A stretch of DNA of 64,000 nucleotides. Source: Candidatus Binatia bacterium (GTDB lineage: Bacteria; Desulfobacterota; Binatia; HRBIN30). The notes beneath the pieces were generated by a model. The model had not been told where the DNA came from, did no database searches, and saw nothing but the letters and a program-made list of their open reading frames with translations. Positions 32,592 to 51,449 of the stretch are shown here, one piece after another. The position numbers were made by a program, and so were the translations under genes. Where the stretch lies: positions 47 through 64,046 of the forward strand of contig JBIOJG010000030.1 in NCBI GenBank assembly GCA_044450645.1, written 5' to 3'. Within the stretch, counting starts at the first letter, position 1; each line of letters opens with the position of its first letter.

Positions 32592-35072
32592 TCAGACGAC
32601 AACTTCGGCGGCCCGCAGCTTTGCGACCTCCGCCGCACTCATTCCGAGAACGCTCTGCAGGATCGAGTCCGTGTGCTCACCAAGTAACGGCCCCGGGCCA
32701 CGTACTTGGCCCGGCGTCTCGGACATTTTGAACGGCACGCCATCGAATTCCACGGTCTCGCCTTCCGGCGTGGCAATCCTTGCCCAGTAACCGCGGGCTT
32801 GCAAGTGCCGATCTCGTTGACAGAGGTCTTCGGCATTCGCAACTATGCCGGCGGCCAGCCCGGCGCTTTGCAGATGCGTCATGACTTCTTCCGCAGCGCG
32901 GTTTCTGGTCCATGACTCGACGTGAGCATCGAGCGCGGCGCGGCTGGCGATGCGCCCGCGCTCGGTTGCGAAGCGTTGGTCGCCCGCCCACGGCGGATTC
33001 CCGAGGGCGCGCCGGAAGCGCGCCCAGTCGTCCTCGCCGAAGACGGCGATCGCGCACCAGCGATCGCCGGCTGGCCCAACACTGGGCAAATCGGCGCAGC
33101 GATACACACCGTGCGGTGCCGCCGGCATTTCCTGAGAAGCGTTGCCGACCGGCGTTGCGAAACTGCGATGCACCAGGATATCGAGCAGTCCGGGGCCAAG
33201 TAGGGCGGTCAGGTTTTCGAATTGCGACAAATCGATGCGCTGGCCTGCGCCTGTCCGGTGCCGATGCCAGAGGGCCATCAGAACGGCCAGCGCGCCGCTG
33301 TAGCCTGCGGCCATGTCGGAGTACGAAAATCCCCAGCCGCTGGGCTCGCCGTCCACATGGCGCATCAGTAGCGTGTATCCAGCCAGCGCCTGCAAAGTGG
33401 GGCCGTACGCGACGTAGTCCCGGTACGGACCGGTGTGACCGAACCCAGACATACTGAGGGCGATGATCTCCGGCTTCAAACGGCGGAGGCTCTCGTAATC
33501 CAGTTGCCAGTTCCGCATCACGCGTGGGCTGAAGTTGTCAACCACCACGTCCGCCGTCGCGACGAGTTGTTTCGCCAGCTCAACTCCCCGCTGGGTGTTC
33601 ATGTTGATCACGATGCTCTGCTTCCCGCGGTTGAGATTGCCGGTCAGCCCGCCGCGGCGCGAGCCGAAGTCGAGGGCGTCACGCCGCTCGATCTTGATGA
33701 CCTCGGCGCCGTGATCCGCGAGGATGCGTGTCGCTACCGGGCCGGCCACGACCCACGTAAAGTCGATGATTCGCACGCCCTCGATCGTGCTGAGAGGAAA
33801 GGGCTGAGCGTTGAGCGCTGAGTCCTGAGTCCTGAGTCCCGAATCTGCGTTCTGTGCTTCGATCTCCGCCAACACTTCGTTGGTGTGCTCGCCGACCAAC
33901 GGTGGCCGGCGGCGGATACGCCAAGGCGTGCTGCTGAACACGTAGGGAGCGCCGGGGTACGCGAGAGTGGCGTTCAACTCCTCGTGGCGGACCGGCACGA
34001 AGAAGCCGCGGTCGAGTAGCTGCGGATTGTGCGGCAGCGTTTCTGGTGGGAGCACCGGGGCGTAGGGGATGCGCCGGAGTTGCGCGCCCTCGACCAAGTC
34101 GGCGACGGCGTAGTCTTTGGCCCACTGATCGAGCACGTCGAAAAGATGATTGCAGTGGTCGCGCCGGTGGTTGAAATCTTCCCACGCCGGCTCGACCAGG
34201 TCCTGCGCTTTGCCGTCCGCCTTCACCCACTCGATCAATGAAGTCCAGTCGCACAACGCACAGTGCATGATGTAGCCATCTTTGCAGCGGCCCACCCGGA
34301 AGTAGCGTGTCCAGTGCAAGCTGCCGTGACGTTCGGCGATCGTGCCGTTGTGATGGAAAAAGCTGCTGGCGTGCTCCAGCGAACCGGCAACGCATTCCTG
34401 CAGGCTGACGTCGATCCACTGCCCGTGCCCGCTGCGCTCGCGCGCCAGCAGCGCCAGCAGCGCGCCGATGGCGGCATACGTGGAGGCGCTGTGATACGCC
34501 TGCAATCCCAATCCTTGCAGCGGGGGCTCGTGCTCGAAGCCGTTCACATAGACCATGCCCCCGAGTGCCTGTGCGATCAGATCGGAGCTGCGGAAGTCGC
34601 GGTGCGGGCCGGTTTGCCCGCCCGGCGTGATGGAGACTAACGTGAGCCGCGGGTTGCGTTTGGCCAACGCTCCATAACCAAGACCAAGTGTATCAAGACC
34701 GCCCGGCGTGCCGGTTTCCACGACCACATCGGCGGTCGCGGCGAGCCGCATGAAGCGCTCGCGGTCTCGCGACGTGCCGAGATCGAGGGCCACGCTGCGC
34801 TTGTTGGTATTGTAGTGCCAGAAAAAGAGCGAGCCAGCCGGTGCTTCCTTTTTTCCGTCCGGGAGAGGATCGAGGTGAGAAGATGAGATGACCGACGTGC
34901 CAGCGTCACCTCTGAAGAACGGCCCGATGCGTCGCATCGCCACACCGCCGGGTGGCTCGATCTTGATGACGTCCGCACCCATGTCGGCCAAAAGTTTGGC
35001 GCAGTACACACCAGACTCGTCCGCCAGGTCGAGCACGCGCACGCCATGGAGGGCGCCCGGAGACCCGATCAT
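32592..35072 (-). CDS. tandem-duplicated family III CoA-transferase (two CaiB/BaiF domains in one polypeptide)
   Basis: 826 aa. Domain 1 GVRVLDLADESGVYCAKLLADMGADVIKIEPPGG; domain 2 GVRIIDFTWVVAGPVATRILADHGAEVIKIERRD. Confidence 0.8.
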   Translation of the reverse strand: MIGSPGALHGVRVLDLADESGVYCAKLLADMGADVIKIEPPGGVAMRRIGPFFRGDAGTSVISSSHLDPLPDGKKEAPAGSLFFWHYNTNKRSVALDLGTSRDRERFMRLAATADVVVETGTPGGLDTLGLGYGALAKRNPRLTLVSITPGGQTGPHRDFRSSDLIAQALGGMVYVNGFEHEPPLQGLGLQAYHSASTYAAIGALLALLARERSGHGQWIDVSLQECVAGSLEHASSFFHHNGTIAERHGSLHWTRYFRVGRCKDGYIMHCALCDWTSLIEWVKADGKAQDLVEPAWEDFNHRRDHCNHLFDVLDQWAKDYAVADLVEGAQLRRIPYAPVLPPETLPHNPQLLDRGFFVPVRHEELNATLAYPGAPYVFSSTPWRIRRRPPLVGEHTNEVLAEIEAQNADSGLRTQDSALNAQPFPLSTIEGVRIIDFTWVVAGPVATRILADHGAEVIKIERRDALDFGSRRGGLTGNLNRGKQSIVINMNTQRGVELAKQLVATADVVVDNFSPRVMRNWQLDYESLRRLKPEIIALSMSGFGHTGPYRDYVAYGPTLQALAGYTLLMRHVDGEPSGWGFSYSDMAAGYSGALAVLMALWHRHRTGAGQRIDLSQFENLTALLGPGLLDILVHRSFATPVGNASQEMPAAPHGVYRCADLPSVGPAGDRWCAIAVFGEDDWARFRRALGNPPWAGDQRFATERGRIASRAALDAHVESWTRNRAAEEVMTHLQSAGLAAGIVANAEDLCQRDRHLQARGYWARIATPEGETVEFDGVPFKMSETPGQVRGPGPLLGEHTDSILQSVLGMSAAEVAKLRAAEVVV

Positions 35073-35295
35073 GCGTTGCCCGGATAGAAGAGGCCCTGCC
35101 CGAAGTCAACGCGCCATGGGCTCATTGGCCTGCTTGCCCGACCTTGGTGAGCCAGGCGTCCCCCGCGTGTGCAGGTTCGTTCAGCGCTGCAGCCATTTGT
35201 TGTTGATGGTCTTTTGCAGGTTGTGATAGCGATGGGTCCCATCCATGGAAGCCTGGGACAGAGCAGGCGCCGAGGCTCCTCACACATATGATCAT

Positions 35296-37833
35296 ATGAT
35301 CAATACGGGGCTCAGATTGGAGGGGGCCGACCCTCGGCATCGTCCACTCACGCGCGCCGGTACCACCGTCGCTGCCTGGGCGCTTGCCTTGGTTGCGCTG
35401 GGTTCGCCTTGGCGCGCAACCGCGCAAGGCATCGAGGGCACGACCTACGAGATGGAAAAGGTCACGCCGCAGGAGTTTCGCGGTAACGTGCGCAACCTGC
35501 CCAGGCTACCTCCCAGCCCCAAGATGTATCGACCCCTGCTGCGGGGACCACGTAGCACCAAAATATTTCCGAGCCGACCAACCACTTTTGAGTCAATCCC
35601 TGTCCCATTTTCCCTCCCGTTGGCGCAGATGCCCGGCCCGGTGGAAGACTTTGCCGGTCTGAGTTTCATCGACAGCTGCACCGGTGGACAGTGTGGCGCG
35701 GGCTGGCCTCCCGACCCGAACGGGGACGTGGGTTCGAACCATTATGTCCAAGCGGTCAACGATGCCTATGCCATCTACAGCAAAACCGGCACCCTGCTTG
35801 CCTCGTTCACGGAGGATCAGTTGTGGAGCGGTAGTGGAGCGAATCCCTGCAACGGTGATTCTCAGGGCGACACCGTTGTTGTGTACGATCAGCTGGCGGA
35901 CCGGTGGATTCTCACGCACTTTGCCTTCGCCACCGCTGGAAGCACCCCGGTCTCGCCGTTCTACGAGTGCATCGCGGTGTCGAAGACGAGCGACCCGGTT
36001 ACGGGCGGGTGGTGGCTGTATGCCCTGCGCATGGACCCAGGCGGCGCGGGCAAGCCTTCCATCAGTACAATGAACGATTATCCCAAATTTGGCTTGTGGC
36101 CCGATTGCCTGTACATGGCGGCCAATGGCTTCAGAGAACCGGGCGACACTTTCGTCGGGGTGGAGTATGCCTCATTCAGCCGCGGTGATCTGGAAAGTGG
36201 CGCCGCGCTGACATGGTCGCTGGGTGTTGTCAACAATGCGACGGACCCCTTCACCATGATTCCCAGCAACCTGTTGGGCAGCTCACCGGGCACGCTGCCC
36301 CCACCCGGTACGCTGAACTACTTCGTCTCCGAATCGCAAACCACGTCGGCCTTCGAGGTGAGAACATTTGCGCCGGGCGGCAACTGTGGTGCTGGCGGTA
36401 CGCTCAGCTCCGCGACGAATGTGAGCCAGACGACCTATTTGGGCACGCCCGGCATGAACGTGCCTCAGCCCAATACGACGAACCGGATCGATGCGATCGA
36501 CGACCGCCTGATGCAAAAGGTGCAATATCGCAAAGTCGGGAGCGCCGAATCGCTGTGGGTTGTTCATTCGGTCCAAACCTCATTCAGCGCTGCGGTGGCA
36601 CCGCAGTGGGCCCAGATCGATGTCACTGGGGGCACGATTGCTACAACACCGGTTCAGCAACAAATCTATGCACCCGATACGACCCTCTATCGCTGGATGG
36701 GTAGCATAGCTGCCGACAGCGAGGGCAACGCGGCGCTCGGCTACAGCACCTCGAATGGTACCGCGCCGAACTACCCCAGCATCGCCTACTCCGGGCGCCT
36801 CGTGGGCGATCCGCTCAATCAGCTGCCGCAAAGCGAAGTCAAACTGATCGACGGGGAAGGCTCGCAAACTAATAGTTGCAGTGGCATCCCATGCGGCCGC
36901 TGGGGCGATTACAGTGCAATGAGTGTCGATCCAGCCGACGACTGCACCTTCTGGTACACCAACGAGTACTACAGCAGCCAAGCGAACGGCAATAGTGGGA
37001 ACTGGCAGACACGCATCGGCTCGTTCAAGTTCCCGTCTTGCGGCAGCGCCGCGCCGACCAGCACCCCGACAAACGTACCCACGGACACCCCGACCGATAC
37101 GCCGACTCAGACGCCGACAGTCACGCCAACGAGTACTCTGACCGCAACGGAAACCGCGACACCGACCAATACGCCGACGGAAGCCGCGACGGCAACACCA
37201 ACAAACACGGCAACCGTGGCTCCGACCGACACGGCGACGCCGACAGCAACCGCAAGCGTGACGAATACCGCGACGGACACGCCGACTAATACCCCAACGA
37301 GCACAGCAACAGCGACTGTGACGAATACGCCGACAACAACCCCGACGAGCACCCCGTCGGACACGCCGACCAATACCCCGACTGACAGTCCGACCGTCAC
37401 CACCACCCCAACAGTTACGCCGACGAGTTCGCCTACCGATACACCGACCACTACCCCAACTCACACACCGACCGTAACGTCGACACAGACGTCCACTCAG
37501 ACACCAACCGCCACAGCAAGCGCGACGCCAACGCTAACGGCAACAGCGACCGGGATGCCGACGCCTACTTCCACAGCCACGGCGAGATCGACTCCGACTG
37601 GCGTCGCTACTCCAACCGCGACACCTACGGCCACGGCGACATTGGTCGCGTGCGTCGGCGACTGCAATGGAAGAAGGACGGTGACTGTGGACGAGATCCT
37701 TATCATGGTGGATATTGCGCTCGGCAACGCGCCGCTTCACTTGTGCAATTCCGGCGATGCGAACGGAGACGGACGGATAACGGTCGACGAGATTCTGAGC
37801 GCGGTGAACAATGCCCTGAACGGATGCCCTTGA
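35296..37833 (+). CDS. secreted protein: about 600-aa unknown domain, Pro/Thr linker, C-terminal dockerin-like module
   Basis: Signal peptide [22 protein letters not shown]. The unknown domain is Cys- and Trp-rich ([25 protein letters not shown]). TPT-repeat linker of about 190 aa. C-terminal [25 protein letters not shown]...[29 protein letters not shown]. Confidence 0.7.
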
Positions 37834-37890
37834 CTCGAATCCTGAATGACCATCCTTTGATTTCGCCTGGCAATCGGGTAGGGAACATCC

Positions 37891-38694
37891 ATGCCGTGGG
37901 TACGTGTCGGAGATGCGTCGCTCAACTACGAGCAGGCAGGCGAGGGTACGGACCTCGTTCTGATTCACGGTCTGGGCGGTGACCTACACATCTGGGATGC
38001 CGACGCACCGGTTTTCGCGCGGCACCACCGCGTGCTGCGCTACGATGTCCGTGGCTGTGGGGCATCCGAGAAGCCGCCGGGGCCGTACTCACTCTCGCTA
38101 TTTGCGCGTGACCTGGACGCGCTACTCGCGGCCTGTGGCGTGCGTGCTGCTCACATTCTTGGCGTATCGATGGGTGGCGTGATCGCCCAGCGCCTCGCGT
38201 TCGATGATCCGGATCGCGTGCGGTCACTGGTGTTGGTGAGCACCTCGAGCGAGGTGGGCGCAAGATCGATCGCTGCCTGGCAGCGGTTGGCCGACCTGAT
38301 CGAACGCGAAGGCTTCGATGCCCGTAGCGCAGACGCGTCACGTGCCTTCTCGCCGGCGTTTGCCACCCGTCATCCCGAGGTGGTGGCCGAGCTTGGCCGC
38401 CGGAATGCCACGAACGATCCGCGCGCCTATGCCGCGACGGCGCGCGCGGTGAGCGACTACAACTGGACCGCCGAGTTGCCGCACCTGACGGCACCAACCC
38501 TCATTCTGCAGGGCCTCGATGACCAGCTGACGCCGCCGGGCGGCTCGGTGAAGATGAGTCGGGCGCTGGCGCATGCACGGCTGCTGATGATTGCCGAGGC
38601 GGGACACAACCTGGCGCTTGAACAGCCGGCGGTCTTTCACCATGCCGTCCTTGCGTTCACTGCCGGCGTAGACTTCGCGCGTCCCGCTTTTTGA
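37891..38694 (+). CDS. alpha/beta-fold hydrolase (enol-lactonase-like)
   Basis: DLVLIHGLGGDLHIWD, GVSMGGVIAQ (GxSxG), conserved C-terminal His region. Confidence 0.8.
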   Translation: MPWVRVGDASLNYEQAGEGTDLVLIHGLGGDLHIWDADAPVFARHHRVLRYDVRGCGASEKPPGPYSLSLFARDLDALLAACGVRAAHILGVSMGGVIAQRLAFDDPDRVRSLVLVSTSSEVGARSIAAWQRLADLIEREGFDARSADASRAFSPAFATRHPEVVAELGRRNATNDPRAYAATARAVSDYNWTAELPHLTAPTLILQGLDDQLTPPGGSVKMSRALAHARLLMIAEAGHNLALEQPAVFHHAVLAFTAGVDFARPAF

Positions 38695-38728
38695 CACCAT
38701 CCCTCGGTTTCACTACGGGTGTACGCAC

Positions 38729-39745
38729 ATGCGGCGGTTTTCGTATCGGGCCTTCTTATGGGTGTTTGCTGCCGGCAACGCCATCGTCTGGTTTCTGATC
38801 TTGTACGGCCTCGGATTGTTCCTGCACGCCCATCTGGCTCGGGATGGCTGGTTGACACGCCAGAGCGCGGCACGGATGGTATGCTTCGGGTTACTCATCC
38901 CTAGTGTGCTCTCGCTTCAGGGAGCCATAGTGAACTTGCGCGTGCAGTTCTTGCTTGGTCGTTTTCTGTCACCGGCTGACGTATCGGCTTCACCCAGGGT
39001 GGTGCGCAGTCCGTGGTACGTGGCGGTGATGACGGCCGCGATATTCTGGGCGGCAGGGCTGCCGGTCTTCTTTGGCATGCTGTATTGGCGGCTACCCGAG
39101 GGGCTGGGAGCTCGAGGAATGGCGCTGCTGATGGGTGGCGTCGGCGCGCTGTCTATCTTGATGCTGGCAGCCTTTGCTGGTGACCGCGAGTTGCGTAGCT
39201 ACCTCCGTGTGATGGACGAGCCGACGGCGATGCCGATCTCGGCGGCACGCTACGCCGTGTGCCGCATCGCGATCCCTTGGGGAGTGGTGAACGCGGTCAT
39301 TAATGCCGTCTTGGCCTGGATTACGTATAGTGTGGGCACAGGAGGCGCGCCGGCGGTGCTCCTTGACGACTTGCGCGCCGATCTCGCCGTCATGGCGTTT
39401 CTCATCAGTGTGTTCATGGCGCTGTCGGCGTTACCGGAGGTGGAGACAGATTTTCGGCGAAACGTGGTGCAGGTGCCGGCCTGGTTGCCGTCGATGCCAC
39501 GGCTGTGGGTGCGGTACGGTTATGCGCTCGGTGTGGGGCTGGCGACGTATGCCGCCGTGACCGCAGCGGCGGCATCCGGCGTCTCCAGCGTATCGTTGGC
39601 GACTGCCGTTGTGGCCAAGAGCCTCATCAGCGGCGCTGTTGCGGCAGGTGCTGCCGGCGCCTGTGCCCTGTGGGGACTCGGTCGCTGCGCTCGCAGACGG
39701 GCTCCCCGAGACGTCGATGTCCTGGCGCCGGCAACGGCGCTTTGA
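38729..39745 (+). CDS. hypothetical polytopic membrane protein
   Basis: 338 aa. About 8 hydrophobic helices. No recognisable motifs. Confidence 0.45.
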   Translation: MRRFSYRAFLWVFAAGNAIVWFLILYGLGLFLHAHLARDGWLTRQSAARMVCFGLLIPSVLSLQGAIVNLRVQFLLGRFLSPADVSASPRVVRSPWYVAVMTAAIFWAAGLPVFFGMLYWRLPEGLGARGMALLMGGVGALSILMLAAFAGDRELRSYLRVMDEPTAMPISAARYAVCRIAIPWGVVNAVINAVLAWITYSVGTGGAPAVLLDDLRADLAVMAFLISVFMALSALPEVETDFRRNVVQVPAWLPSMPRLWVRYGYALGVGLATYAAVTAAAASGVSSVSLATAVVAKSLISGAVAAGAAGACALWGLGRCARRRAPRDVDVLAPATAL

Positions 39746-39776
39746 ATGAATCAGCAGAGCAGAAGGGAACGCGAAG

Positions 39777-40238
39777 ATGAAGCGACGGAACCAGATTCAC
39801 ATGACGCCAGACGAAATGCGGCAATTCCTGAAACGTTCGAAGACGATCGTTCTCTCCACCATTGACCACCACGGGTATCCGCACTCGGTCGCCATGTGGT
39901 ACGAGATGGAGGGGGATGATTTCGTCATGACGACCTATGCCAAATCACAGAAGGCGATGAACATCCGCCGCAATCCGAAGGTTGCGTTGATGGCGGAATC
40001 GGGGGAGACCTACGAGTCGCTCAAGGGGGTGCTGGTGCGCGGCCGGGCGGAACTCATCACGGATGCCGAGCGGTGCGTCGGGATCTTGCTGCGCGTACAC
40101 GAGAAGATGAGCGGTGCCGCGCTGCCGCCCGGGGCCGAGGGCGTGTTGCGCGAGCAGGCACGCAAGCGCGTCCTGATCAAGGTCACGCCCGAGCGCACGA
40201 GTAGTTGGGACCACAGCAAGCTGGGCGGCGTGTACTGA
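39777..40238 (+). CDS. pyridoxamine 5'-phosphate oxidase-family (PPOX class, possibly F420/FMN-binding) protein
   Basis: 153 aa. SKTIVLSTIDHHGYPHSVAMWYEMEGDDFVMTTYAKSQKAMNIRRNPKVAL split-barrel FMN-binding pattern. Confidence 0.7.
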   Translation: MKRRNQIHMTPDEMRQFLKRSKTIVLSTIDHHGYPHSVAMWYEMEGDDFVMTTYAKSQKAMNIRRNPKVALMAESGETYESLKGVLVRGRAELITDAERCVGILLRVHEKMSGAALPPGAEGVLREQARKRVLIKVTPERTSSWDHSKLGGVY

Positions 40239-40344
40239 GGATAAGCCGAAACCGGAACGCCCGACACCGCCTGCGGTGTGCTGGTCGACCGTGTTCCATA
40301 GCCAGGCACATAGCCTGGCGAGCTTCTAACAGTGCGGCGCCTTA

Positions 40345-42174
40345 TTGCAAATGGACGGACGGAAGCGCATGAGAGGTCGAGTCAGCTTTTGCATGATGTC
40401 TAGGGATCAACGCTTTCGGCATCGCGCACGGGGCATCCTCCTTGTGTCCGTGGTATTCCTGTCATGCATGAATATGGCGGTTGCAGCAGAAGTGCTCCCC
40501 GGCGACGCGGACTGCGACGGCGGAGGAATCGGCGCCGCTGACCTTGTTGCCCTCGAGGACGCCATCTTCTCCGGCAGCGACTGCGCCGGCGCGGACGTGA
40601 ACCATGACGGCGCAGTGACGGCAGCTGACCTGGTGGCGGAAATGGTGTTGCTGGTTCCGCCAACGTCGACCCCAACGCTGACACCGGCACCGTCGGTCAC
40701 CCTGACGCCAGTCCCTTCAGTCACGAACATCCCATCTCCCACGCCGTTTCCTACTGCCACCGTCTCGGCGACGCCGACGATCACGTTGAGCCCTACGATC
40801 ACTGGTACGCCTACGGTGAAAGGGTCACCGACCCGCACGTTCACGCCATCGCGGACGGCGACCCCATCTGCGACACCCACGCGTACGCTCCGGCCCACGC
40901 CCACGATCACCTCAACCTGGACCATTCCGCCGTCACCTACTCGCACAGCGACGCTCACGCCAACACCAACCCGTACGCCAACCTCAACCCGCACGCCGAC
41001 GGTGACACCTACGTCTACTCCGAGCCCCACACCAACTTCCACGCCGACGCTCACTGGGACGCCGACGCCGACGAAAACGGCCACTGCGACCGCCACGTCC
41101 ACCGCCACGCCAACGGTCACGCCGACTTCCACCGCGACCCTAACGTTCACGCCGACGCCGACTTTCACCGTGACCCCGACGTGGACCGCCACCCGAACGT
41201 CGACCGCGACGCGGACCCCGACCGAGACTGCGACAAACACCGCGACGCCGACGCCGACGCCGTCTCAGACCGCAACCGGTACGGCGACCGGGACGCCGAC
41301 GCTCACGGCCACGCGGACATTCACCGCGGTGCCGACGGCGACGGGGACCTACTCGCCGACGTTGACACCGAGCGTGAGCCCGACGCGAACATCGAGCCCA
41401 ACGGTGACCTCTTCCCCCACGACCAGTGCGACGCGGACTTTCACCCCGAGCTTTACAGCGACGGTCACGGCAACAGCGACGGCCACGGCAACACTGACGC
41501 CGACGGGGCAGGGTCCGATCATCACGTTTTTCGGAGTCCTGACGAGAGCGGATGGCTGTATTTCCTGCTGTGACGTCAGTTGCGCCAACACACCGACGCC
41601 CACGCCGTTCTTTGATGACCAGGGCCGCCGCATTTTTCAGGTCGACGGCGGTATCCTGAATATCGTCGTCGAGGGCGGCAAGGGGCTGAGTACAGCGGAT
41701 GTAGCGACATCACTGCAACCGAGCCCCCCGGACAATCGACCCGACCTTCAGATCGAGGCCACGCAAAGCCTCGGCGACGGCAGCCCTGCAGTATGCGACA
41801 TCGGTCCCACCTCAGCGGGAGGCGGCGGTGTTCCCGGGATAGTGCCGCCCGATTTTACACTTGAACCGAACCCGGGGCCGACGCCGGGGACGATCTCCGG
41901 GGCGCTGGCCGATTTCGCCTGCCGCTTCAGCTACCAAGCACCAGGTTTCCAATGCACCTACTGGGACCTGGCGACGCCGGGGTATGCCGGCCCGGGAAGT
42001 TCCGCTCAGTTCTGCGACCAGACGGATGCGAACGCCGCGTTCAATCCGGGAGACTCGATTTTGACGGTGCGGTTGCGTGACGTCAACGGCAACACCGGGC
42101 CGACGGCGCAGATTGTGGTCCGAGTGAACACGCCAAGGCCGACGCGAACGCCGACGCAAACGCCGACGCCGTGA
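40345..42174 (+). CDS. secreted protein: N-terminal dockerin-like module, about 250-aa Pro/Thr linker, C-terminal unknown domain (paralog A)
   Basis: Signal peptide ([20 protein letters not shown]; start likely an internal Met near 40393). [25 protein letters not shown]...[23 protein letters not shown]-terminal domain with [10 protein letters not shown] and [14 protein letters not shown]. Confidence 0.7.
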
Positions 42175-42282
42175 AACGGCTGGGAAATTCCCGCGGCCGC
42201 GCCGGGACGCTCCTGGATCGTCCACGGTTCGATCTTCTCATATTGCAAACGGCGTGCATTCCAGGCATGACCAGAGCACTGT

Positions 42283-44568
42283 ATGCTGCGTTCTGGTGTC
42301 TCGCGCGCGAGCGGTCTTCGTTATCACGGTGCGAGCCTGGTGGTCGTGGCCTTCCTGTGCATGTGGGCGTGCGGCTCAATCGCCGCGGCCACGACCTTGC
42401 CGGGGGATGCGGATTGCGATGGCGATGCCTTGGTCGATGCGACTGATGTCGCCGCTGTTGTTGCCGCGATCTTCGAGGGCAGTTCGTGCGCCGGTGCGGA
42501 CGTCAACGGTGACGGGGTGCTCTCGGCTGCGGACCTTCCCGCCGAGGTGATGGCGTTCGCTGCTCCGCCATCTGAGACGCCGACAGTTACGCCCAGCCCC
42601 GGCCTGACGCCCTCGCTGACGGCGACCGCAACCGTAACGCCGTCGCCCACGCTTTCACCTTCGCCTGTCACGCCGCCGTCTACCGCGACATGGACTGTCA
42701 CCCCATCAATCACGCCAACCTTCTCCGTGACCTCAACGCCGTCCAATACGGCGACGCACGGGCCGAGCCAGACACCGTCGTTGACTGCCACCGCGTCGCG
42801 GACACCGACCTTCACAACGTCGCCCTCGCCGAGCACCACTCCAACGTCAACCGCAACTGCGACCCGGACACCCAGCCCGACGCGGACGCCGACAGCAACG
42901 CCATCGCCGACCCCGACGCGCACGCCGACGGCAACTTTATCGCCGACCCCGTCCCGGACACCAACGTTCACCTTTACGTCGTCGCCAAGTGTGACACCGA
43001 CACCAACCCCAACCGCGACGCTGACGCCGAGGCCGACGCGCACGCCTACGGCGACGGCGTCGCCGACTATGTCCTGGACACCAACGTTCACTTTCACGTC
43101 CTCGCCAACTGCAACACCGACACCGACCCCAACCGCGACGCCGACGCCGAGCCCGACGCGCACGCCTACGGCGACGCCGACGCCAACGCCCTCACGAACG
43201 CCGACTTTTACGGCCACGCCCTCGCTGAGCCCGACTCCCACACCATCGCCAACCGACACCGGCACGCCAACGCCGACGCCAACACTCACGTCGACACCGA
43301 CGCCGACACCCTCCCGGACGCCGAGTTTCACGTCTACGCCGTTCCCCACACTGAGCCCGACACCGACGTTCACGGTGACATTGACGCCAACGTCAACGGG
43401 AACTCCGACCGTCACGGCGACGCCGTCGCTGACCCCGACGCCGACGCTATCGCCCACCAGCACTCAGACGTTGAGCCCAACGCCGACTAAAACGCCTACG
43501 GCAACTCGGACAGCGACCTGGACACCGACACAGACGCCGACACCAACACCGACGTCATCGAACCCGGGGCCGCAGGTGCTCTTCTTTGGCATTACGAGCC
43601 CAGATGGGTGTCTGGCTTGCCCAGCCCCTGGATGCGACTGTGTCAGTTGGCCGACACCGACGCCGTTTGTCGGCCCGGGTCCTCAGATCTTTTCGGTTCC
43701 CGGGCAGTTCATGATTGTCATCGAGGCGACGCCAGGCACAAACGGTGTGCCGGTCTCGAAAGTCCCGTACGTACAGCCGGGATGCGGTCCGGGCGTTGGG
43801 CGTCCGGATCTGCAAATTGAGACCACCCGAAACATGGGAACCGCCAGCACCCCATTGTGCAGTCTGGACGGGAGCATCACTCAGCTCGGATACATCCCGG
43901 GCATTCCGACGCCCAGCTTCGGCCCGGATACAGGCCCGACCCCCACGATCACGAACGCGCTGCAAAACTTCTCCCTGACGTTCACGTACCATGACCCTCT
44001 CACCGGTCCATGCACCAAGGATGCCGGAGGCAACGACGCGTATTTCCACGCAGGCGCGACGCAATTCTGCAGCGACCAAATCACTGGGGCTCAGAGCTTC
44101 CCTCAGGGCGAGTCGTTGCTCACTCTCCAGGTGCTCGATGCGAACCATAACCCCGGGCCAACGGCACAGATCATCGTGCGGGTACCAACCTGGACGCCAA
44201 CTCCGACCATAACGCCCACACAGCCCACGTCTACAGCCACGGCAACGCAACCGTCCGCAACTCCTACCGTTACCTTTACGCCGACGATGACAGGGACCCC
44301 GACCGGCACGCCAACTGCGACGCTGGCGTCAACGCTCACCGCGACGTCGACGGCGGCGTCTACGCTTACTCCCAGCGTGACGCCGACGCAGACACCAACT
44401 AGCACGCCAACTGCAACGTCATCACCAACGCTCACCGCGACAGGGGTGGCGACGCCGACGCCTACCGTGACGCCTACACCGTCAGCAACCCCGACGGCCA
44501 CGGAAACCCCAACGCCGTTTCCCACGGAGACGTTCACTCCTGGCCCGACGCCGACCAACACGCCTTAG
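42283..44568 (+). CDS. secreted protein: N-terminal dockerin-like module, Pro/Thr linker, unknown domain, second Pro/Thr tail (paralog B of 40345)
   Basis: Signal peptide. [26 protein letters not shown]...[22 protein letters not shown]. Shares [10 protein letters not shown] and [14 protein letters not shown] with paralog A. Confidence 0.7.
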
Positions 44569-44746
44569 CACGGCAAGAAGCCGCCGGATGCCGTCAAGGA
44601 GCCGAAAAAGGTGGTTTTTTCAAATAATTTGGGGTTTACTATTGACTAGTTTTGGCGAATACGGCATACGAGAAAGCGGTTTAGTCCGGGACCGAAGACC
44701 GGTCTCGTTAACAGTAGACGCTGGAATTGCCGAAAGGAGGCGTGCG

Positions 44747-46183
44747 ATGCGTGGATCAAAGCGGAGTCCTTGGCTGTTTGGCCTTGGGGTACTGCTCGCT
44801 GTCCTGGTGGTGTATGGAGGGCATGCCCGAGCCGACGTGACCACCGATCGATCTGGTTCAATCATTGTGTTTCCCAAAGTGGTGGCGGATGGCACACGGG
44901 ATACCATCATCCAAATGGCAAACACCTCTAACACGCAGACCACCGTGCACTGCACGTACGTCAACGCAGCCGGGTTCTGCAGTGTGACGACCACAACCCC
45001 GTGCGATCTCGATTCCGACTGCAGCACGGGCGAACTGTGCGTTCACCAATGTCTCGATCATAACTTTGAGATTTTTCTAACGGCGCAGCAGCCGACGTCA
45101 TGGAGGGTCAGTGCCGGCCGTGACTCCTTCCCGTTTGGGGGTCTGTCGGTGCCGCCGATGTTTGGCGGCACGAGCCCGAGCCCGTTTGTGGGCGAACTGA
45201 AGTGCGTCCAGGTTGACGGCTCGGGTGCGCCTGTCGGCCAGAACTCGCTCAAGGGCGAAGCGACCCTCTTCAGCGTCGCAGCTGGCCAGAAGTTTGGGCA
45301 GGTCAGCGAATACAATGCAATCGCCATTCTGGGGAACGGAGCCGGGTTGTCTGCACATAGCAACGTGCTCAACCTCAACCTCGCTGGCACCTGTCTGGCC
45401 GGTCCGAACATCGGACTGGCTTGCTCGGTCGACACGCAAGCGTCTGACTGTCCCGGTAGCACCTGCACCTTCAATGCTTTGGGTGAGTTCAATGCGTGTC
45501 CGAACAGCCTGGTGGTGAATCACTACGGTGATGGTGCCACCGATAGTTTCACCGGTGCGGACGTGAATACCGAACTGACGCTGGTTCCGTGCACGGAGCT
45601 TCTGGAGCTGGTGCCGACACACGCCCTGGCGCAATTCCAGATTTTCAATGAGTTCGAAAACAAGCTGAGCGCCAGCATAGACTTTGACTGCCTTTTGAAT
45701 CGGCGGTTGAGTAACATTAGCAGCCAGTTCACTGCTGGTACGATCGGCTCCGACTTTGCCAAGACGCGTATTTCACCGGCGGCCGGCAGCATCTGCTACA
45801 CTGGCGACAATCGGTGCCATCTCTGTACGCTTGGCGACACCGACCTTCAGTGTAACCCGGTGGGTGGGACGCCGCTGCCGGTAGGGGCGCTCGTGGGTAA
45901 CTGTGACTGCAACGCCGGCAACCCGTGCGTGAACCCGATCGGCGTCGGAACATGCGCCATAAGCGGGGCCAACTGTCAGAATGCTGGAGACTGCCCCGGT
46001 GCCGGAGACTCCTGCACCATCACGAACACCTTCGGGTGTATGCCTTGGTCCGGGCTACTTGGCGTAGCGGAGGAATTCCAGCAGCCTGTCGGTACGGGGT
46101 CCGTACCCGGTACGGCAGCGGTGAATGTGTATGTGGAAGGCAGTCGCCCAGGCGACGTCATTGTCCTGCCGCCGGTGCAGTAA
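44747..46183 (+). CDS. secreted Cys-rich protein, unknown family (paralog 1 of 4)
   Basis: SD aaaggagg 6 nt upstream. Signal peptide ends ARA|DVTTDRSGSIIVFPKVV. Shared family motifs: GELKCVQVD...LKGEATLF, TELTLVPC, QFQIFNEFENKLSASIDFDC, KTRISP. Confidence 0.75.
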   Translation: MRGSKRSPWLFGLGVLLAVLVVYGGHARADVTTDRSGSIIVFPKVVADGTRDTIIQMANTSNTQTTVHCTYVNAAGFCSVTTTTPCDLDSDCSTGELCVHQCLDHNFEIFLTAQQPTSWRVSAGRDSFPFGGLSVPPMFGGTSPSPFVGELKCVQVDGSGAPVGQNSLKGEATLFSVAAGQKFGQVSEYNAIAILGNGAGLSAHSNVLNLNLAGTCLAGPNIGLACSVDTQASDCPGSTCTFNALGEFNACPNSLVVNHYGDGATDSFTGADVNTELTLVPCTELLELVPTHALAQFQIFNEFENKLSASIDFDCLLNRRLSNISSQFTAGTIGSDFAKTRISPAAGSICYTGDNRCHLCTLGDTDLQCNPVGGTPLPVGALVGNCDCNAGNPCVNPIGVGTCAISGANCQNAGDCPGAGDSCTITNTFGCMPWSGLLGVAEEFQQPVGTGSVPGTAAVNVYVEGSRPGDVIVLPPVQ

Positions 46184-46273
46184 GTAAGGGTGGCGCGAGG
46201 TGGATCGATGAAGTCGAATGTGTCTCGCAGGAAACCCTGGGTCGCCCGCGAGTGGGACGAAAGGAGATGGGCA

Positions 46274-47515
46274 ATGGTGAAGATGACACGAGTTGCCTCG
46301 GTGACGACGCTGGCCGGACTCGCGCTGGGCATGTGGATGCTTGCGGCGCAGTCACCAGCAGAGGCCAAGACCACGTCGGATCAGGCCGCGGCCATACTCT
46401 ACTGGCCTAAGGTCGTCGTGGACAGCGCCAATCATACCGACACTTTGATTCGCTTGAGCAATACCAACACGAGCCTGCAGAAACAGGCGCACTGCTATTA
46501 TATCGATGCCAACAGTCACTGCTCCAATAACCCTAGTCAGGTATGCAACGGAAGCTGCTCTGGCGCGGGCGTGTGCCTCCAAGGCTGGGGCGAAATCGAC
46601 TTTGACATCGTCATCACCAGAGATCAGCCGCTGGCGTGGCACGCCAGTTCTGGGATGCATCACGGGCAGTTTCCGCTCGAGGTTCCTGGTGTGTGCAAAT
46701 TGGGACCTCCTTTCCCTTGCTCAGCCGACTTCCAGTGCCCTGCGGGCCCGGGGGGTGGCTGCCTGCTCCTGCCGAATAACATCGGCAGCGGGATCCCTCC
46801 CGTTGCGGAAGACCCGTTTGTGGGTGCACTGATTTGTGTGCAGTACGACCCGAGCGCAAATCCGCCAGCTCCGGACCAGAGCCTGACCACCGGCAATGCC
46901 CTGATCGGGGAGGCAACAATCGAGCGCGCGATCCCGGCGGCCGCTCCTGCTCCCGCGGGTGTGGACCTCGCGTCTTACAACGCGGTCGGCGTGAGGTATA
47001 AGGGTGGCGTCGAAACGGTGCCCCCTGGCGAGTTGCACCTCGACGGCGTGCAGTACGAGAGCTGCCCAACGACCCTGATTCTTGACCACCAATTCGACGT
47101 GGTTACAGGAACCGAGCAACAGGTGACCGATCTGACGCTGGTTCCCTGCGGTAATAATTTCCTCACGCAGACCCCAGGGTCAGTGACGGCGCAGTTCGTC
47201 ATCTTCAACGAGTTCGAGCAACGTTTCTCAACCAGCAATGGGGTGGACTGCTTCTTTGACAAGCAGCTCTCCAGGATCGATACCGTAGACCCGTCACGCT
47301 CGATATTCACGAGTTCGCAGGCTGGGACCGCTGTGGGCCAGACGCGTATCCGGCCCGTCAGCAGCGCCGCCACGGGTCGAGGGGTACTGGGGGTGGCGGT
47401 GTACAGGCAGCTCGGACCCACCGGCCTTGTTGGCGATGCGGCGTATGATCTGCACCAGAGTGGCAGTCTCGCTCCTGGTTCAGGAACACAGCCCGACGTC
47501 ATTACCATCCCGTAG
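46274..47515 (+). CDS. secreted Cys-rich protein, unknown family (paralog 2 of 4)
   Basis: SD aaggag 7 nt upstream. Signal peptide ...AEA. ILYWPKVVVDSANHTDTLIRLSNTNTS, GALICVQYD...LIGEATI, TDLTLVPC, AQFVIFNEFEQRFSTSNGVDCF, GQTRIRP. Confidence 0.75.
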   Translation: MVKMTRVASVTTLAGLALGMWMLAAQSPAEAKTTSDQAAAILYWPKVVVDSANHTDTLIRLSNTNTSLQKQAHCYYIDANSHCSNNPSQVCNGSCSGAGVCLQGWGEIDFDIVITRDQPLAWHASSGMHHGQFPLEVPGVCKLGPPFPCSADFQCPAGPGGGCLLLPNNIGSGIPPVAEDPFVGALICVQYDPSANPPAPDQSLTTGNALIGEATIERAIPAAAPAPAGVDLASYNAVGVRYKGGVETVPPGELHLDGVQYESCPTTLILDHQFDVVTGTEQQVTDLTLVPCGNNFLTQTPGSVTAQFVIFNEFEQRFSTSNGVDCFFDKQLSRIDTVDPSRSIFTSSQAGTAVGQTRIRPVSSAATGRGVLGVAVYRQLGPTGLVGDAAYDLHQSGSLAPGSGTQPDVITIP

Positions 47516-47577
47516 TCATTGGTGCCTGAGTGACGGGGGAGAGAGTTCAGGCCGGAATCCTAATAAGGAGGAAGCTC

Positions 47578-48978
47578 ATGAGGACGACCCAATGTGTGCG
47601 CGCCGGCTGGGTGATGGGTGCACTGGGAGCGTGCATGCTCGTGGCGGGTGCCGCGCGAGCGGACGTGACCACACAGCGTCCTGGCTCCATTCTGATTTTC
47701 CCGAAGGTTGTGAACGACGGGACGCGTGACACTGTTATCCAAATTACCAATACAAGCAACAGCTTGGACACGGCTCGATGCTTCTATCTTGCGGGCCAAC
47801 TGGGGGCGAACGGGCTGCCGCTTTGCTCTGAGACGGACTTCTTCATCAACCTCACGCGACAGCAGCCGACGATCTGGCGGGCGAGCACCGGCAGAGGCCA
47901 ATTTAGCTCGGATGGACTGTCGCCAGGTCAAGTTCCGCCCGTGCCGCTCGGCTTTACGGGCGCCTTGATCTGTGCCGAGGTCGATTCCAGCCTTGAGGCG
48001 CCGGTGGCGAAAAATGCCCTCAAGGGCGAGGCCACTCTGCTGTCGGCTACCAGCGATGACCAGAGTAAGTACAATGGCATCGCCTTCCTAGGCGGCGCAG
48101 CGAATGATGGCGATAACGTTCTCAATCTCGACAGCAGCGAGTATAACGCCTGCCCGGCCGGGTCGCGCGTAGATTTCATCGCGTCCGATGCCGAGGACCC
48201 GGTGATTGACAGCCTCGGGAACGCCGGCAGATGCAGCCTCGCGGGTGTCCTGACGGCTACGCCCTGCAACACCACCGCCAACTGCACCGGCGGCCAGATC
48301 TGCTCTACTGGCCAATGTAGCAACGGCGCGGCATGCAACGTTGATGCGGATTGCACGACTGGCACTTGTGCGCCGCTAACCGGGGTGACGACTAACGTAA
48401 CGGTCCTTCCGTGCAATCTCGATCTCAATGCGCTTGTGCCGACGGCTGTGTCGCTCGTGCTGAGCGGTAAGGACACCGAGCAGAGCACACTGAGCGGCTC
48501 GAAGACGATGTCCTGCTGGGAAAGCTTCGCGATCGATACCAGTGCAAGCTGCGCCGGAGGTTACGGACGGGTGTGCCTCACGCGGCCGAATACGACGTTT
48601 GCGAGTGTTGACATTACCTCCGGACGGGGCGGACCAGTGATTGCCGTGGCTGAGGCGTTTCACACGGACAGCGTAGGGCACACTTCCACGGCAGCTGTGA
48701 ACCTGCACGTCGAAGGCCAGTGCGTCGGTGCCTGCACGGCCCCGAGCCTGGGGGTTCCTTGCCTGACGTCTGCGGTATGCGGTGCGGGAACCTGCACCGG
48801 GGTAACCAGCATAGGCAGCGAGTGCAACAGCAACGCCGATTGCGGCGGTGGCCTGTGTTCCGGGCCACGGTTCTGCAGCGGCGGAACGGACGCTGGACAA
48901 GCGTGCACCGCTGATGCCAACTGTACCGGTGGCACGTGTCCGTTGCCAAGCGCACGAATTCATCTGCCTGGCGCATGA
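47578..48978 (+). CDS. secreted Cys-rich protein, unknown family (paralog 3 of 4)
   Basis: SD aaggagg. Signal peptide ARA|DVTTQRPGSILIFPKVVNDGTRDTVIQITNTSNS. GALICAEVDSS...LKGEATLL, TVLPCNLDL. Extra Cys-rich C-terminal repeats (CTG.TC). Confidence 0.75.
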   Translation: MRTTQCVRAGWVMGALGACMLVAGAARADVTTQRPGSILIFPKVVNDGTRDTVIQITNTSNSLDTARCFYLAGQLGANGLPLCSETDFFINLTRQQPTIWRASTGRGQFSSDGLSPGQVPPVPLGFTGALICAEVDSSLEAPVAKNALKGEATLLSATSDDQSKYNGIAFLGGAANDGDNVLNLDSSEYNACPAGSRVDFIASDAEDPVIDSLGNAGRCSLAGVLTATPCNTTANCTGGQICSTGQCSNGAACNVDADCTTGTCAPLTGVTTNVTVLPCNLDLNALVPTAVSLVLSGKDTEQSTLSGSKTMSCWESFAIDTSASCAGGYGRVCLTRPNTTFASVDITSGRGGPVIAVAEAFHTDSVGHTSTAAVNLHVEGQCVGACTAPSLGVPCLTSAVCGAGTCTGVTSIGSECNSNADCGGGLCSGPRFCSGGTDAGQACTADANCTGGTCPLPSARIHLPGA

Positions 48979-49047
48979 TGAGGTGCTGACATGGTGATGC
49001 GCGAGGGTGCGGTGGGTAGACGTTCATTGATTGAAAGGAGACGGGCG

Positions 49048-50370
49048 ATGGCGAACCGGGTACGGTCGAGTGCTCTCATCGGTGGTGTCGCGGTGGTTGC
49101 CGTCCTCCTGCTGATGGCCCAGCGTGGTCAGGCGCAGACGGTCGCGTCGGACCGAGCGGCTGGCTACGTTGTATTTCCGAAGGTCCTCGTGGACTCCACG
49201 GACATATTCACGCAGGGACGCAAGGTCGACACATTGATTCAGTTAACCAACACGGCGGAAGCTGCCGGCAGTGATACGGGATGCCGGGTGGTGGAATGCG
49301 TGTACGTGGACGCAACGATGCACTGCACAAACGACGTTACGCGACAGTGTCGGACCAGTGTGGATTGCGCTACGGGAGGAACGTGTGGACGGACCGATGA
49401 CTGGCAGGAGCGGAACTTTTTTATCACCCTGAGTGCCGGACAAGCGATCGGGTGGAGCGCAGATTCGGGGGCAACCCTGCCTGCCGACGCCGCCTGCGGA
49501 ACGACGTCGCAGACGATTCCCTTTGTGCCTGAGAAGTTCTTCATCGGCGAGCTGAAGTGCGTCGAGCTTCAGGCGCAGGACGGTCCACCGCTGAACGCGA
49601 ACGACCTCAAGGGTGAGGCGACGATTTACGAGGTGGCGACTGGAGTGACGCCCACAGGGGGCGTTGATGTACGGTCGTACAACGGTGTGGGTTTACAGGC
49701 GATCAAGACCGACCTGAGCACGCAAAGTGCGAGGTGCGTAGGTGGGACAAATCAAGGCACGGCCTGCACGGCGGACGCACAATGCCTGCCTACGGGGGTG
49801 GGTGTCTGTCTGCCGGTTTTGTGCCTGGGCTCGAATCCAGCGACGGGTGCTGTATGCGGCAGCTCGGCGCAGGCGTATGCCGGATGCCCAAGTACGCTGA
49901 TTCTGAATCACTGGTTTGATGGGGCGCTCAACCCGAAAACCGAGAATCCGATTACTACGGATCTGACGTTAGTGCCGTGTACCGAGGACTTGAGGAAGGT
50001 TGGCGCCGCCGCAACACCCGCAACGACGGTTCAGTTTCTAGTGTACAACGAGTTCGAGCAGCGGTTTTCCGCGAGTACTTCGGTCCGCTGCTTTAAGGAG
50101 ACGCAGCTTTCACGGATTGACACCCTGCCTGGGAATGACAGCGTATCGATTTTCAATTTCAGCGTTCAAGGTACGCTCACCGGGCAGACAAGAATTCGAC
50201 CGATCAACGGCACCGAGCTCGATAAGGGTCATGGCCTGCTCGGCGTTGCCGAGGAGTTTTCCAGGGGCAGTGGCCTCTTCCCGAGGGGCTCCGCGGCGTT
50301 CGATCTAGACTTCACAGGCACGCCGACCGGGAAGGCTGACGTCGTAACGCTTCACGTAAGTACGCCATAG
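49048..50370 (+). CDS. secreted Cys-rich protein, unknown family (paralog 4 of 4)
   Basis: SD aaaggag. Signal peptide. GYVVFPKVLVDS...DTLIQLTNTAEA, GELKCVELQ...LKGEATIYEV, TDLTLVPCTEDL, VQFLVYNEFEQRFSASTSVRCF, GQTRIRP, LLGVAEEF. Confidence 0.75.
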   Translation: MANRVRSSALIGGVAVVAVLLLMAQRGQAQTVASDRAAGYVVFPKVLVDSTDIFTQGRKVDTLIQLTNTAEAAGSDTGCRVVECVYVDATMHCTNDVTRQCRTSVDCATGGTCGRTDDWQERNFFITLSAGQAIGWSADSGATLPADAACGTTSQTIPFVPEKFFIGELKCVELQAQDGPPLNANDLKGEATIYEVATGVTPTGGVDVRSYNGVGLQAIKTDLSTQSARCVGGTNQGTACTADAQCLPTGVGVCLPVLCLGSNPATGAVCGSSAQAYAGCPSTLILNHWFDGALNPKTENPITTDLTLVPCTEDLRKVGAAATPATTVQFLVYNEFEQRFSASTSVRCFKETQLSRIDTLPGNDSVSIFNFSVQGTLTGQTRIRPINGTELDKGHGLLGVAEEFSRGSGLFPRGSAAFDLDFTGTPTGKADVVTLHVSTP

Positions 50371-50403
50371 GGATGAGTTAATTCGGGTTTGCTTGCCAGG
50401 AGA

Positions 50404-50438
50404 GGGGCCGGCCGCGCTTGCGACCGGCCCTTTCTTTT
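50404..50438 (+). terminator. rho-independent terminator after the paralog array (GGGCCGGCCGC/GCGACCGGCCC stem, TTTCTTTT)
   Basis: Stem of 7+3 bp with one mismatch, 4-nt loop, U-rich tail. Lies 34 nt after the paralog-4 stop. Confidence 0.45.
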
Positions 50439-50601
50439 GCGTAGGGCGCCGGCATTCGGCGCTCGCGGCGTTCATGGCAGACCGCGTGCGCTCGGTGCTG
50501 CGCAGCCCGGCAGGCGCTGTGTCGCAAGGGGAGGGGAGCGGCGCTGCGCTTCATGGGGCTAGGAATTAGAAGGTCGCTGTGTGCAAGCAGAGGCGCACGT
50601 G

Positions 50602-51000
50602 ATGGCACGGAAGAAGATCCTGGTCGTTGAGGATAATCTCGATAATCGCAGGATCCTCGTCTATCGGCTTCGTCGAATTGGAGATTTCGAGATTCTGGAA
50701 GCTGGGAACGGCATAGAGGCGTTGAGGTTGGTAGAGGGAGAAGTGCCTGACCTGATCTTTATGGATCTTAAGATGCCAGTTATGGACGGGTGGGAAGCAA
50801 CGAGGCGTATTCGTGCGGGTGGGGATGCGCGCCGGATTCCCATTATTGCGCTGACGGCTCAGGCGATGGCAGGGGATGAGCAGAAGGCGTTAGCGGCAGG
50901 CTGTGATGATTACGTTGCAAAGCCAATCGTTGACCCGGACCTGATCCGTGAGAAGCTTGAGCGTCTGTTGAACTGGGACGCTGCACTCCTGAAGGGGTAG
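50602..51000 (+). CDS. single-domain response regulator (CheY-like receiver)
   Basis: KILVVEDN...D, DLIFMDLKMPVMDGWE, ALTA...KPI receiver motifs. No output domain. Confidence 0.8.
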   Translation: MARKKILVVEDNLDNRRILVYRLRRIGDFEILEAGNGIEALRLVEGEVPDLIFMDLKMPVMDGWEATRRIRAGGDARRIPIIALTAQAMAGDEQKALAAGCDDYVAKPIVDPDLIREKLERLLNWDAALLKG

Positions 51001-51206
51001 AGTCGGTTACGGTCTGGATTCCTCTCGACAGACTTCCGACTGGTCTTAGCAGGCCACCGGCGATGGAATACGCACACACCATCAGCGGGCGGCAATGCCG
51101 ATGGGAATGCCGCGAGTGTGTTGCTGCCGCGGAGACACGTACCATCGATTCGCTGGCAACCCTCTCCCAGGAGGTAAACGGAGCGTGAGGTGGCGCACTC
51201 TGTGAC

Positions 51207-51449
51207 TCAGACTTGGGGTACGGGTGCTTCGCTGTTGCCGTTCTTTCGAGCAAAGCCAGCCGTATGGTGGCCGTGCCGCTCGGCAAACTCAATTAGTGTC
51301 GCTCTTGCGAGTTTGCTCGGGCGAAAACGCCCGTTTTCCCAGCGGTTCACCGTGCCGACCGTGATGCCCAATTCATGGGCGAACTCCTCTTGGGTCATCT
51401 TGAGTTCACGGCGCAGGGCGCGAACGAATTCTCCTGCTTCTTCCAACAT
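51207..51449 (-). CDS. XRE-family helix-turn-helix transcriptional regulator
   Basis: LRRELKMTQEEFAHELGITVGTVNRWENGRFRPS is the canonical HTH_XRE. Confidence 0.75.
   Translation of the reverse strand: MLEEAGEFVRALRRELKMTQEEFAHELGITVGTVNRWENGRFRPSKLARATLIEFAERHGHHTAGFARKNGNSEAPVPQV

Follow-up and report, generated by a model that had tools for sequence, protein, structure and literature searches.

Here we describe two adjacent plus-strand genes in a 64,000-nucleotide stretch of the genome of an uncultured soil bacterium, a Candidatus Binatia (hereafter the window; contig JBIOJG010000030.1 of assembly GCA_044450645.1). Their products, protein 1 ('type A') and protein 2 ('type B'), share a C-terminal domain from a new and sizeable family, which folds with high confidence in structure models and occurs mainly in Candidatus Binatia. 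The protein 2 type is a member of a conserved Binatia six-gene cluster, in which a dockerin-domain gene is followed by four paralogous genes, par1 to par4, and by a receiver gene. With a probability of about 0.5, we read both products as secreted proteins composed of an anchor, a spacer and a head, in which the shared domain, as the head, would be an adhesion or capture module and not an enzyme, and in which protein 2 would cooperate with an assembly formed by the par proteins.

The first-pass annotation, drawn from the sequence alone, had described the two products as paralogs, each with a signal peptide, an N-terminal dockerin-like module, a Pro/Thr linker of more than 230 amino acids (aa) and a Cys-containing domain of about 200 aa whose family it could not recognise, and with a further Pro/Thr tail of more than 130 aa in protein 2. 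This description was borne out on every point. The C-terminal regions aligned with 41% identity over about 200 aa (BLASTP, E=6e-31), all four of the conserved motif blocks that had been quoted occur in both proteins, and the two linkers and the tail measure 288, 345 and 132 aa, respectively. Signal peptides were assigned by reading the sequence and not by a predictor; each protein displays a typical Sec signal peptide with an AxA-like cleavage site, that of protein 1 having a positively charged n-region and a hydrophobic core and that of protein 2 being cleaved after IAA at about aa 35, and ATG 40393 is the probable start of protein 1. Neither protein carries a lipobox of the form [LVI][ASTVI][GAS]C, the MWAC of protein 2 being non-canonical as a lipobox and its Cys not conserved.

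Both open reading frames (ORFs) are real genes. In many divergent genomes, the same frame holds the dockerin and the domain on the two sides of the linker within a single uninterrupted ORF, which identifies the plus-strand ORFs as the genes in place of the antisense GV-rich ORFs that lie over Pro/Thr-linker DNA in the window (40407-41240, 42324-43463 and 36580-37464, all on the minus strand). These antisense ORFs encode GV-repeat low-complexity peptides whose ends are not conserved. The opposite view, that the long ORFs are chance frames in low-complexity DNA and that the antisense or short annotated ORFs are the true genes, can point to the public gene calls for metagenome-assembled genomes (MAGs) at the homologous loci L001 and L002, where antisense or out-of-frame genes run across the linkers and only the last ~200 aa of the product are kept; given the frame conservation and the nature of the antisense products, however, we regard it as vanishingly improbable. 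The real ORFs of locus L001 encode 794, 868 and 993 aa, each with a signal peptide, a dockerin, a Pro/Thr spacer and the domain. The family is thus listed mostly as 'hypothetical proteins' of about 200 aa without dockerins because gene callers choose the antisense ORFs in the linkers. We considered whether such ~200-aa database entries are natural stand-alone domains and rejected this, since at L001 and L002 the entries correspond to long ORFs that the gene calls cut short.

A search with copy A of the head domain, the copy in protein 1, retrieved 131 relatives, all unnamed or 'hypothetical' and none with a Pfam domain, from Candidatus Binatia MAGs, MAGs labelled "Deltaproteobacteria" and bacterium HR30. 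When a trimmed 22-sequence profile of the domain was searched against 1.84 billion cluster representatives (50% identity clusters), the threshold E<=1e-3 gave 641 representatives and E<=1e-30 gave 384; many carry two to four copies of the domain. A genome scan located it at 29 loci in about 18 MAGs, most of which bear the label Binatia. Neither Pfam, searched with the window copies and the 22 family sequences, nor NCBIfam gave a match; profile and sequence searches of the PDB found no relative, and Foldseek found none in BFVD (E>=0.06). AlphaFold2 modelled the domain with high confidence (predicted local distance difference test [pLDDT] 94.7, predicted template modelling score [pTM] 0.91), predicting a compact beta-sandwich-like fold of about ten strands and one helix. 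Structure modelling and profile searches had been proposed as a check for a known enzymatic family, and none was matched.

Four Cys residues of the domain are invariant or near-invariant (C97, C139, C150 and C170 in copy A numbering), which implies two disulfides; the Binatia copies carry an additional N-terminal four-Cys cluster. The acidic or polar residues E56, D80, D98, D136, R140, Q168 and D192 are also invariant. The sole link to a known family is a terminal hairpin of ~30 residues, FPxGDTxLTVRLRDxxGNxGP..QIVVRV, which is a HYR/PKD-type motif. One family member exceeds the Pfam HYR cut-off over the last ~27 positions, and 44 HYR repeats of one eukaryote-like protein match profile positions 167-204; the window copies themselves have no HYR or PKD match in Pfam. 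We rejected an assignment of the whole domain to HYR (PF02494), as the likeness is local to 25 columns (hhalign probability 4.6%) and does not extend over the full ~81 residues of that family. Kinship of the head domain with the par family was likewise rejected (profile-profile probability 0.3%).

On the basis of profile comparisons, the N-terminal module is predicted to be a type-I-like dockerin, unusual by its N-terminal place and by its two conserved Cys. The two tandem ~22-residue loop-and-helix segments of Dockerin_1 (PF00404) are present in both window modules, in which the second Ca loop is canonical (DxNxDGxxxxxD type) and the first is degenerate or longer by one residue; NCBIfam returned a weak GC-type dockerin match alone. 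Dockerin_1 was matched by 25 of 26 orthologous modules (best E, 6e-10). Searched as a profile, the Binatia modules found solved type I dockerins over both repeats (4fl4_A, E=9e-7; 2ccl_B, E=1e-5) and matched 1daq, 2mte and 1ohz as well, the E values for solved dockerins ranging from 9e-7 to 4e-4. In dozens of orthologues, the signal peptide is immediately followed by this module, whose consensus begins GDANCDGxvDxaDL..aiF...C. This conservation, together with the matches to Dockerin_1 and to the solved structures, argues that the module is of the dockerin type. Literature searches on Binatia dockerins or surface proteins returned nothing.

The window also encodes a dockerin of another type. 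An 862-aa secreted protein (35245-37833, plus strand) consists of an unannotated N-terminal region of ~540 aa with no Pfam match and no PDB sequence relative (N-terminal ~535 aa searched), a Pro/Thr linker of 206 aa, and, at the C-terminus, a dockerin/EF-hand-like module with four Cys (CVGDCNG...) that differs in type from the N-terminal module of proteins 1 and 2. At locus L002, three proteins terminate in this four-Cys module: one of the PMP/beta-helix kind, one with RCC1-like repeats and one of 272 aa. The C-terminal region of one relative, P0346, gave a weak, unconfirmed Pfam Cohesin match; a PDB sequence search with it gave a dockerin alone.

Among 260 family proteins examined for architecture, 129 begin inside the domain (truncated calls or fragments) and 22 have an unclassified N-terminus or are fragments. 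The N-terminus of the other 109 is interpretable: 65 have an N-terminal dockerin, 28 a lipobox-like lipoprotein signal, 14 another signal peptide and two a C-terminal dockerin. The lipobox-like signals of these 28 relatives occupy the same position as the dockerin, and this interchange at the N-terminus is the main basis for reading the proteins as anchor, spacer and head, to which the variable length of the spacer (about 125 to more than 600 aa among orthologues) and the conservation of the head add. Some relatives carry two to five tandem copies of the domain behind a single anchor, as at L025, L026 and L031, where one dockerin is followed by five tandem domains; another arrangement has a PKD protein after a lipoprotein-anchored single domain and lacks par genes in the vicinity. 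The tandem copies and the HYR/PKD-type hairpin suggest a non-enzymatic, module-like behaviour. Imperfect short tandem repeats make up part of the protein 1 spacer, and the spacer of protein 2 contains a 120-nucleotide (nt) unit in ~3.7 copies (42898-43340). The tail of protein 2 is lineage-specific, the L001 and L007 orthologues being without it.

To follow the genomic context, the window proteins were mapped onto 40 fetched loci, which revealed the par array in 17 independent assemblies. In 17/17 arrays, a dockerin-spacer-domain gene lies directly upstream of par1, the order par1-par2-par3-par4 is fixed, and, wherever the locus extends far enough (14 of 14), par4 is followed by the receiver gene. 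A reverse test through par2 homologues alone had supplied four of these arrays, and the dockerin-domain gene is upstream there too. Further upstream, at least three contexts occur: alpha/beta-hydrolase, PNPOx and type A genes; a phosphotriesterase gene (Pfam PTE); and methylamine dehydrogenase with a transposase. In four genomes (HR30, CALAMI, CAZHQG and KatS3mg077) the locus is split, with the hydrolase, PNPOx and two domain genes at one site and one dockerin-domain gene, par1-4 and the receiver elsewhere. In a neighbour-joining tree, calculated without bootstrap, the PNPOx-linked copies, including window copy A, form one clade, and the par-adjacent copies, including copy B of protein 2, fall outside it. 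The split in the tree and the differing linkage indicate that the two window genes are ancient paralogs, of which the protein 2 type alone is obligately par-adjacent. The earlier proposal that both proteins are candidate partners of the four-paralog array is supported by synteny for the protein 2 type, for which the suggested co-occurrence analysis gave co-localisation in all 17 par arrays; the protein 1 type, a member of the PNPOx-linked clade, is not invariably linked to the array, and at least four genomes have it at another locus.

The par proteins form a family of more than 600 relatives that Pfam, NCBIfam and further family searches left without annotation; par2 is 100% identical to ACHQ9S_16555 of a Candidatus Binatia MAG. 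Structure modelling predicts an all-beta, two-sandwich protein (pLDDT 89) with Cys-rich insertions of variable length. A fold search found no relative over the full length; a single subdomain is similar to TM1070, an uncharacterised protein of T. maritima (1nc7; template modelling [TM] score 0.73-0.76), and par3 gave weak DUF7107 and Dickkopf-like matches.

The gap of ~180 base pairs between protein 2 and par1 contains a promoter-like motif, CTTGACT-N15-GGCATA, which is conserved in all 17 loci (the window, L001, L007-L009, L014, L015, L017, L019, L021-L023, L027 and L039-L042) and has a single occurrence in the window. After it come a short hairpin and an invariant GCTGGAGT..CCGAAAGGAGGCGTGCrATG, and this conserved leader with its ribosome-binding site places the par1 start at ATG 44747 and not at 44588. 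RNAalifold gave a weak hairpin in the leader (-2.2 kcal/mol, three pairs with compensatory changes), and Rfam found no known RNA in 35000-52000; in view of the weak covariation of the hairpin, a structured regulatory RNA is not claimed here. A scan of 39700-51700 with sigma-70 and terminator consensus sequences yielded nothing above shuffled expectation and missed the conserved par1 promoter.

Other genes of the window were noted in passing. A few kilobases beyond the receiver gene lie another receiver gene and a gene for a REC-PAS-HisKA-HATPase hybrid kinase (53535-54059 and 54025-55500, plus strand), a pair that is also found in L041. A 338-aa multi-pass membrane protein with no family match (38729-39745, plus strand) is encoded between the alpha/beta-hydrolase and PNPOx genes, and tblastn found no counterpart of it in any fetched locus. 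A 1625-aa ORF on the minus strand (14174-19051) contains the proprotein-convertase P-domain three times (PF01483, E=2e-35), matches Big_1 weakly, and encodes a large secreted or surface protein.

Table 1. Features of the two dockerin-spacer-domain genes and of the adjoining par cluster (window coordinates).
Feature	Position	Strand	Basis or remarks
Protein 1 ('type A' dockerin-spacer-domain)	40345..42174	+	609-aa ORF; orthologue architecture conserved; neighbour-joining tree
Signal peptide, protein 1	40393..40485	+	Charged n-region, hydrophobic core, AxA site; cleavage after AVA (aa 47), then AE
Dockerin-like module, protein 1	40498..40656 (aa ~52-104)	+	Two Ca-loop/helix repeats, second canonical; two conserved Cys
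Pro/Thr spacer, protein 1	40642..41505 (aa 100-387)	+	288 aa; 40% T, 18% P
Head domain copy A	41506..42135	+	Unannotated, ~210 aa, beta-rich
Protein 2 ('type B', par-adjacent dockerin-spacer-domain)	42283..44568	+	761 aa; synteny, neighbour-joining tree
Dockerin-like module, protein 2	42397..42561 (aa ~39-93)	+	Pfam, NCBIfam and profile searches
Pro/Thr spacer, protein 2	42553..43587 (aa 91-435)	+	345 aa
Head domain copy B	43573..44217	+	Alignment with copy A and family
Pro/Thr C-terminal tail, protein 2	44170..44565	+	132 aa
Promoter-like motif TTGACT-N15-GGCATA and ~85-nt leader with hairpin and ribosome-binding site	44642..44749	+	Upstream of par1
par1-par4, four paralogous secreted all-beta proteins	44747..50370	+	ORFs 44588-46183, 46190-47515, 47530-48978, 48991-50370
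Single-domain response regulator (receiver), CheY-like	50581..51000	+	69-84% identity across loci

Taken together, these observations allow us to propose how the two proteins may work. Both would be secreted by way of their Sec signal peptides, and the N-terminal dockerin, as a Ca-binding protein-protein docking module, would fix the N-terminus to a partner in the cell envelope. The Pro/Thr spacer of 290-345 aa, probably extended, would hold the head tens of nanometres away, where the compact head of ~205 aa, stapled by its two conserved disulfides, would bind a ligand or partner. Protein 2 would most likely work with the assembly made by the four par proteins, and protein 1 would be an older paralog, from the clade that accompanies the alpha/beta-hydrolase and PNPOx genes. 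The localisation of the proteins, anchoring through the dockerin, binding by the head and a physical interaction of protein 2 with the par proteins are the steps that we infer.

Several points weigh against this proposal. The host is presumably diderm, in which a Sec signal alone leads to the periplasm, and surface exposure is assumed from the length of the spacer. The Dockerin_1 scores of the window proteins, 14.9 and 22.7 bits, are below the cut-off of 22.9, and neither a cohesin nor any other receptor for dockerins was recognised among the genes of the window and of the flanking loci examined. With respect to the head, Foldseek in the PDB found no fold relative hinting at a ligand (best TM score about 0.25-0.30, E>=5e-3), and the invariant acidic and polar residues from E56 to D192 could equally form a catalytic or metal site. 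Copy B is without the near-invariant Cys139 (NFSLTF in place of DFACRF); it also lacks the GNGS and GGG (GGGVPG) motifs and has a new Cys in QPGCGPG, and these changes may reflect a re-wired disulfide or relaxed constraint. As for cooperation with the par proteins, a conserved promoter and leader belonging to par1 itself lie in front of it, so that its link to protein 2 is one of neighbourhood and co-transcription is unsupported; moreover, all loci come from one lineage, and the synteny may thus be partly inherited rather than selected.

Two further explanations would have the head receive dockerins. In a scaffoldin-like arrangement, the head would be a non-canonical dockerin receptor, analogous to cohesin, that recruits the many secreted Binatia proteins with the C-terminal four-Cys dockerin, such as the 862-aa protein, and the scaffold would be held on the par1-4 assembly by its N-terminal dockerin, yielding a cellulosome-like surface complex in a diderm phylum. 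One dockerin followed by one to five ~200-aa beta-sandwich copies with Pro/Thr linkers does mirror scaffoldins, two dockerin types occur in the same genomes with the C-terminal type on unrelated nearby passengers, and canonical cohesin was not detected near the dockerin genes. However, Pfam Cohesin was matched by 0 of 22 family members even at E<=5, the sole cohesin fold match in Foldseek was insignificant (2w1n, TM score 0.21), and the lipoprotein-anchored single-copy relatives beside a PKD protein fit a binding head equally well, which leads us to consider this arrangement unlikely. We also consider it quite unlikely that the head, the par proteins or both serve a cohesin-independent dockerin assembly at the envelope of the diderm cell, an analogue of the cellulosome with wholly different receptor folds, in which the par beta-sandwiches would be the platform, protein 2 would be plugged in by its two-Cys dockerin and the head would be the receptor for the four-Cys dockerin. 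The tandem copies of the head and the second dockerin type on neighbouring secreted proteins make such an assembly attractive.

The same proteins might instead be structural or matrix elements of the envelope or periplasm, belonging to a sheath, to an S-layer-associated fibre or to a mucin-like coat, with the Pro/Thr region, possibly glycosylated, as the functional part and the end domains merely nucleating assembly. The Pro/Thr regions account for at least half of each protein, vary strongly in length, bear internal repeats and, in protein 2, include a free tail, and the two-sandwich all-beta par proteins are compatible with building blocks of an assembly. Against such a matrix role, which we judge improbable, the head shows much stronger conservation than the linkers and persists in the anchor-swapped relatives with short linkers, and no component matched an S-layer, pilin or sheath family. 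That the head is an extracellular enzyme (a hydrolase, lyase or oxidoreductase), tethered in the manner of cellulosomal enzymes, would agree with the catalytic passengers typically borne by cellulosomal dockerins, with the invariant charged or polar residues E56, D80, D98, D136, R140 and Q168, and with the linkage of type A copies to the alpha/beta-hydrolase and PNPOx pair. This is nevertheless very unlikely, given that neither sequence nor fold matched an enzyme family, that up to five tandem copies per protein are unusual for catalytic domains, that copy B has been retained despite the loss of several near-invariant positions, and that the domain, small and rich in beta structure, is stapled by disulfides and has a terminal hairpin of the Ig-like (immunoglobulin-like) kind.

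In summary, our analysis defines a large, confidently folded domain family (at least 641 clusters at 50% identity), for which neither an annotation nor a related fold could be detected, in an uncultured phylum of global distribution. Genes of this kind are systematically broken in public annotations, where antisense ORFs hide both their architecture and their dockerins. The conserved, lineage-specific six-gene cluster offers a concrete target for studying the roles of dockerins in bacteria without cellulosomes, and if the head or the par proteins were to prove to be dockerin receptors, nature would have solved the modular assembly of extracellular proteins a second time, independently.

Among known systems, the closest likeness is to the type I dockerins of cellulosomal proteins (PF00404; C. 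thermocellum Xyn10B, 2ccl/1ohz, and CelS, 1daq), which share with the Binatia module the duplicated Ca loop and helix within about 55 aa, and next to which a Pro/Thr linker likewise stands. Type I dockerins, however, are C-terminal, whereas the Binatia module lies at the N-terminus, right after the signal peptide; it also differs in having two conserved Cys, one in loop 1 and one before loop 2, in the degenerate loop 1 of the window proteins, and in its host, a presumably diderm member of a non-cellulolytic lineage. The company that a scaffoldin keeps was not seen either: carbohydrate-active enzymes (CAZymes) and carbohydrate-binding modules were neither found in the window genes scanned nor recorded at homologous loci, and cohesin modules (PF00963) were matched neither by the two window proteins nor by any of the 22 head sequences.

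Non-cellulosomal dockerin-like modules are reportedly widespread in bacteria and archaea, on diverse secreted proteins whose function is mostly unknown, in genomes where no cellulosome can be recognised. Compared with these, the Binatia dockerin stands in a fixed architecture with one unannotated domain, and one of its genes is locked in a six-gene cluster. The head shares its terminal-hairpin motif with the Ig-like adhesion domains HYR and PKD (PF02494 and PF00801), which are extracellular and often tandem, but it is 2.5 times larger, has four conserved Cys and a helix, and its likeness to them is confined to about 25 columns. The same logic of an anchor, a long spacer and a folded head is seen in fibrillar adhesins and in lipoprotein-tethered binding proteins, in keeping with the relatives that swap the dockerin for a lipobox; in contrast to fibrillar adhesins, the Binatia spacer is an unstructured Pro/Thr linker instead of a stalk of Ig repeats, and the anchor is N-terminal and non-covalent.

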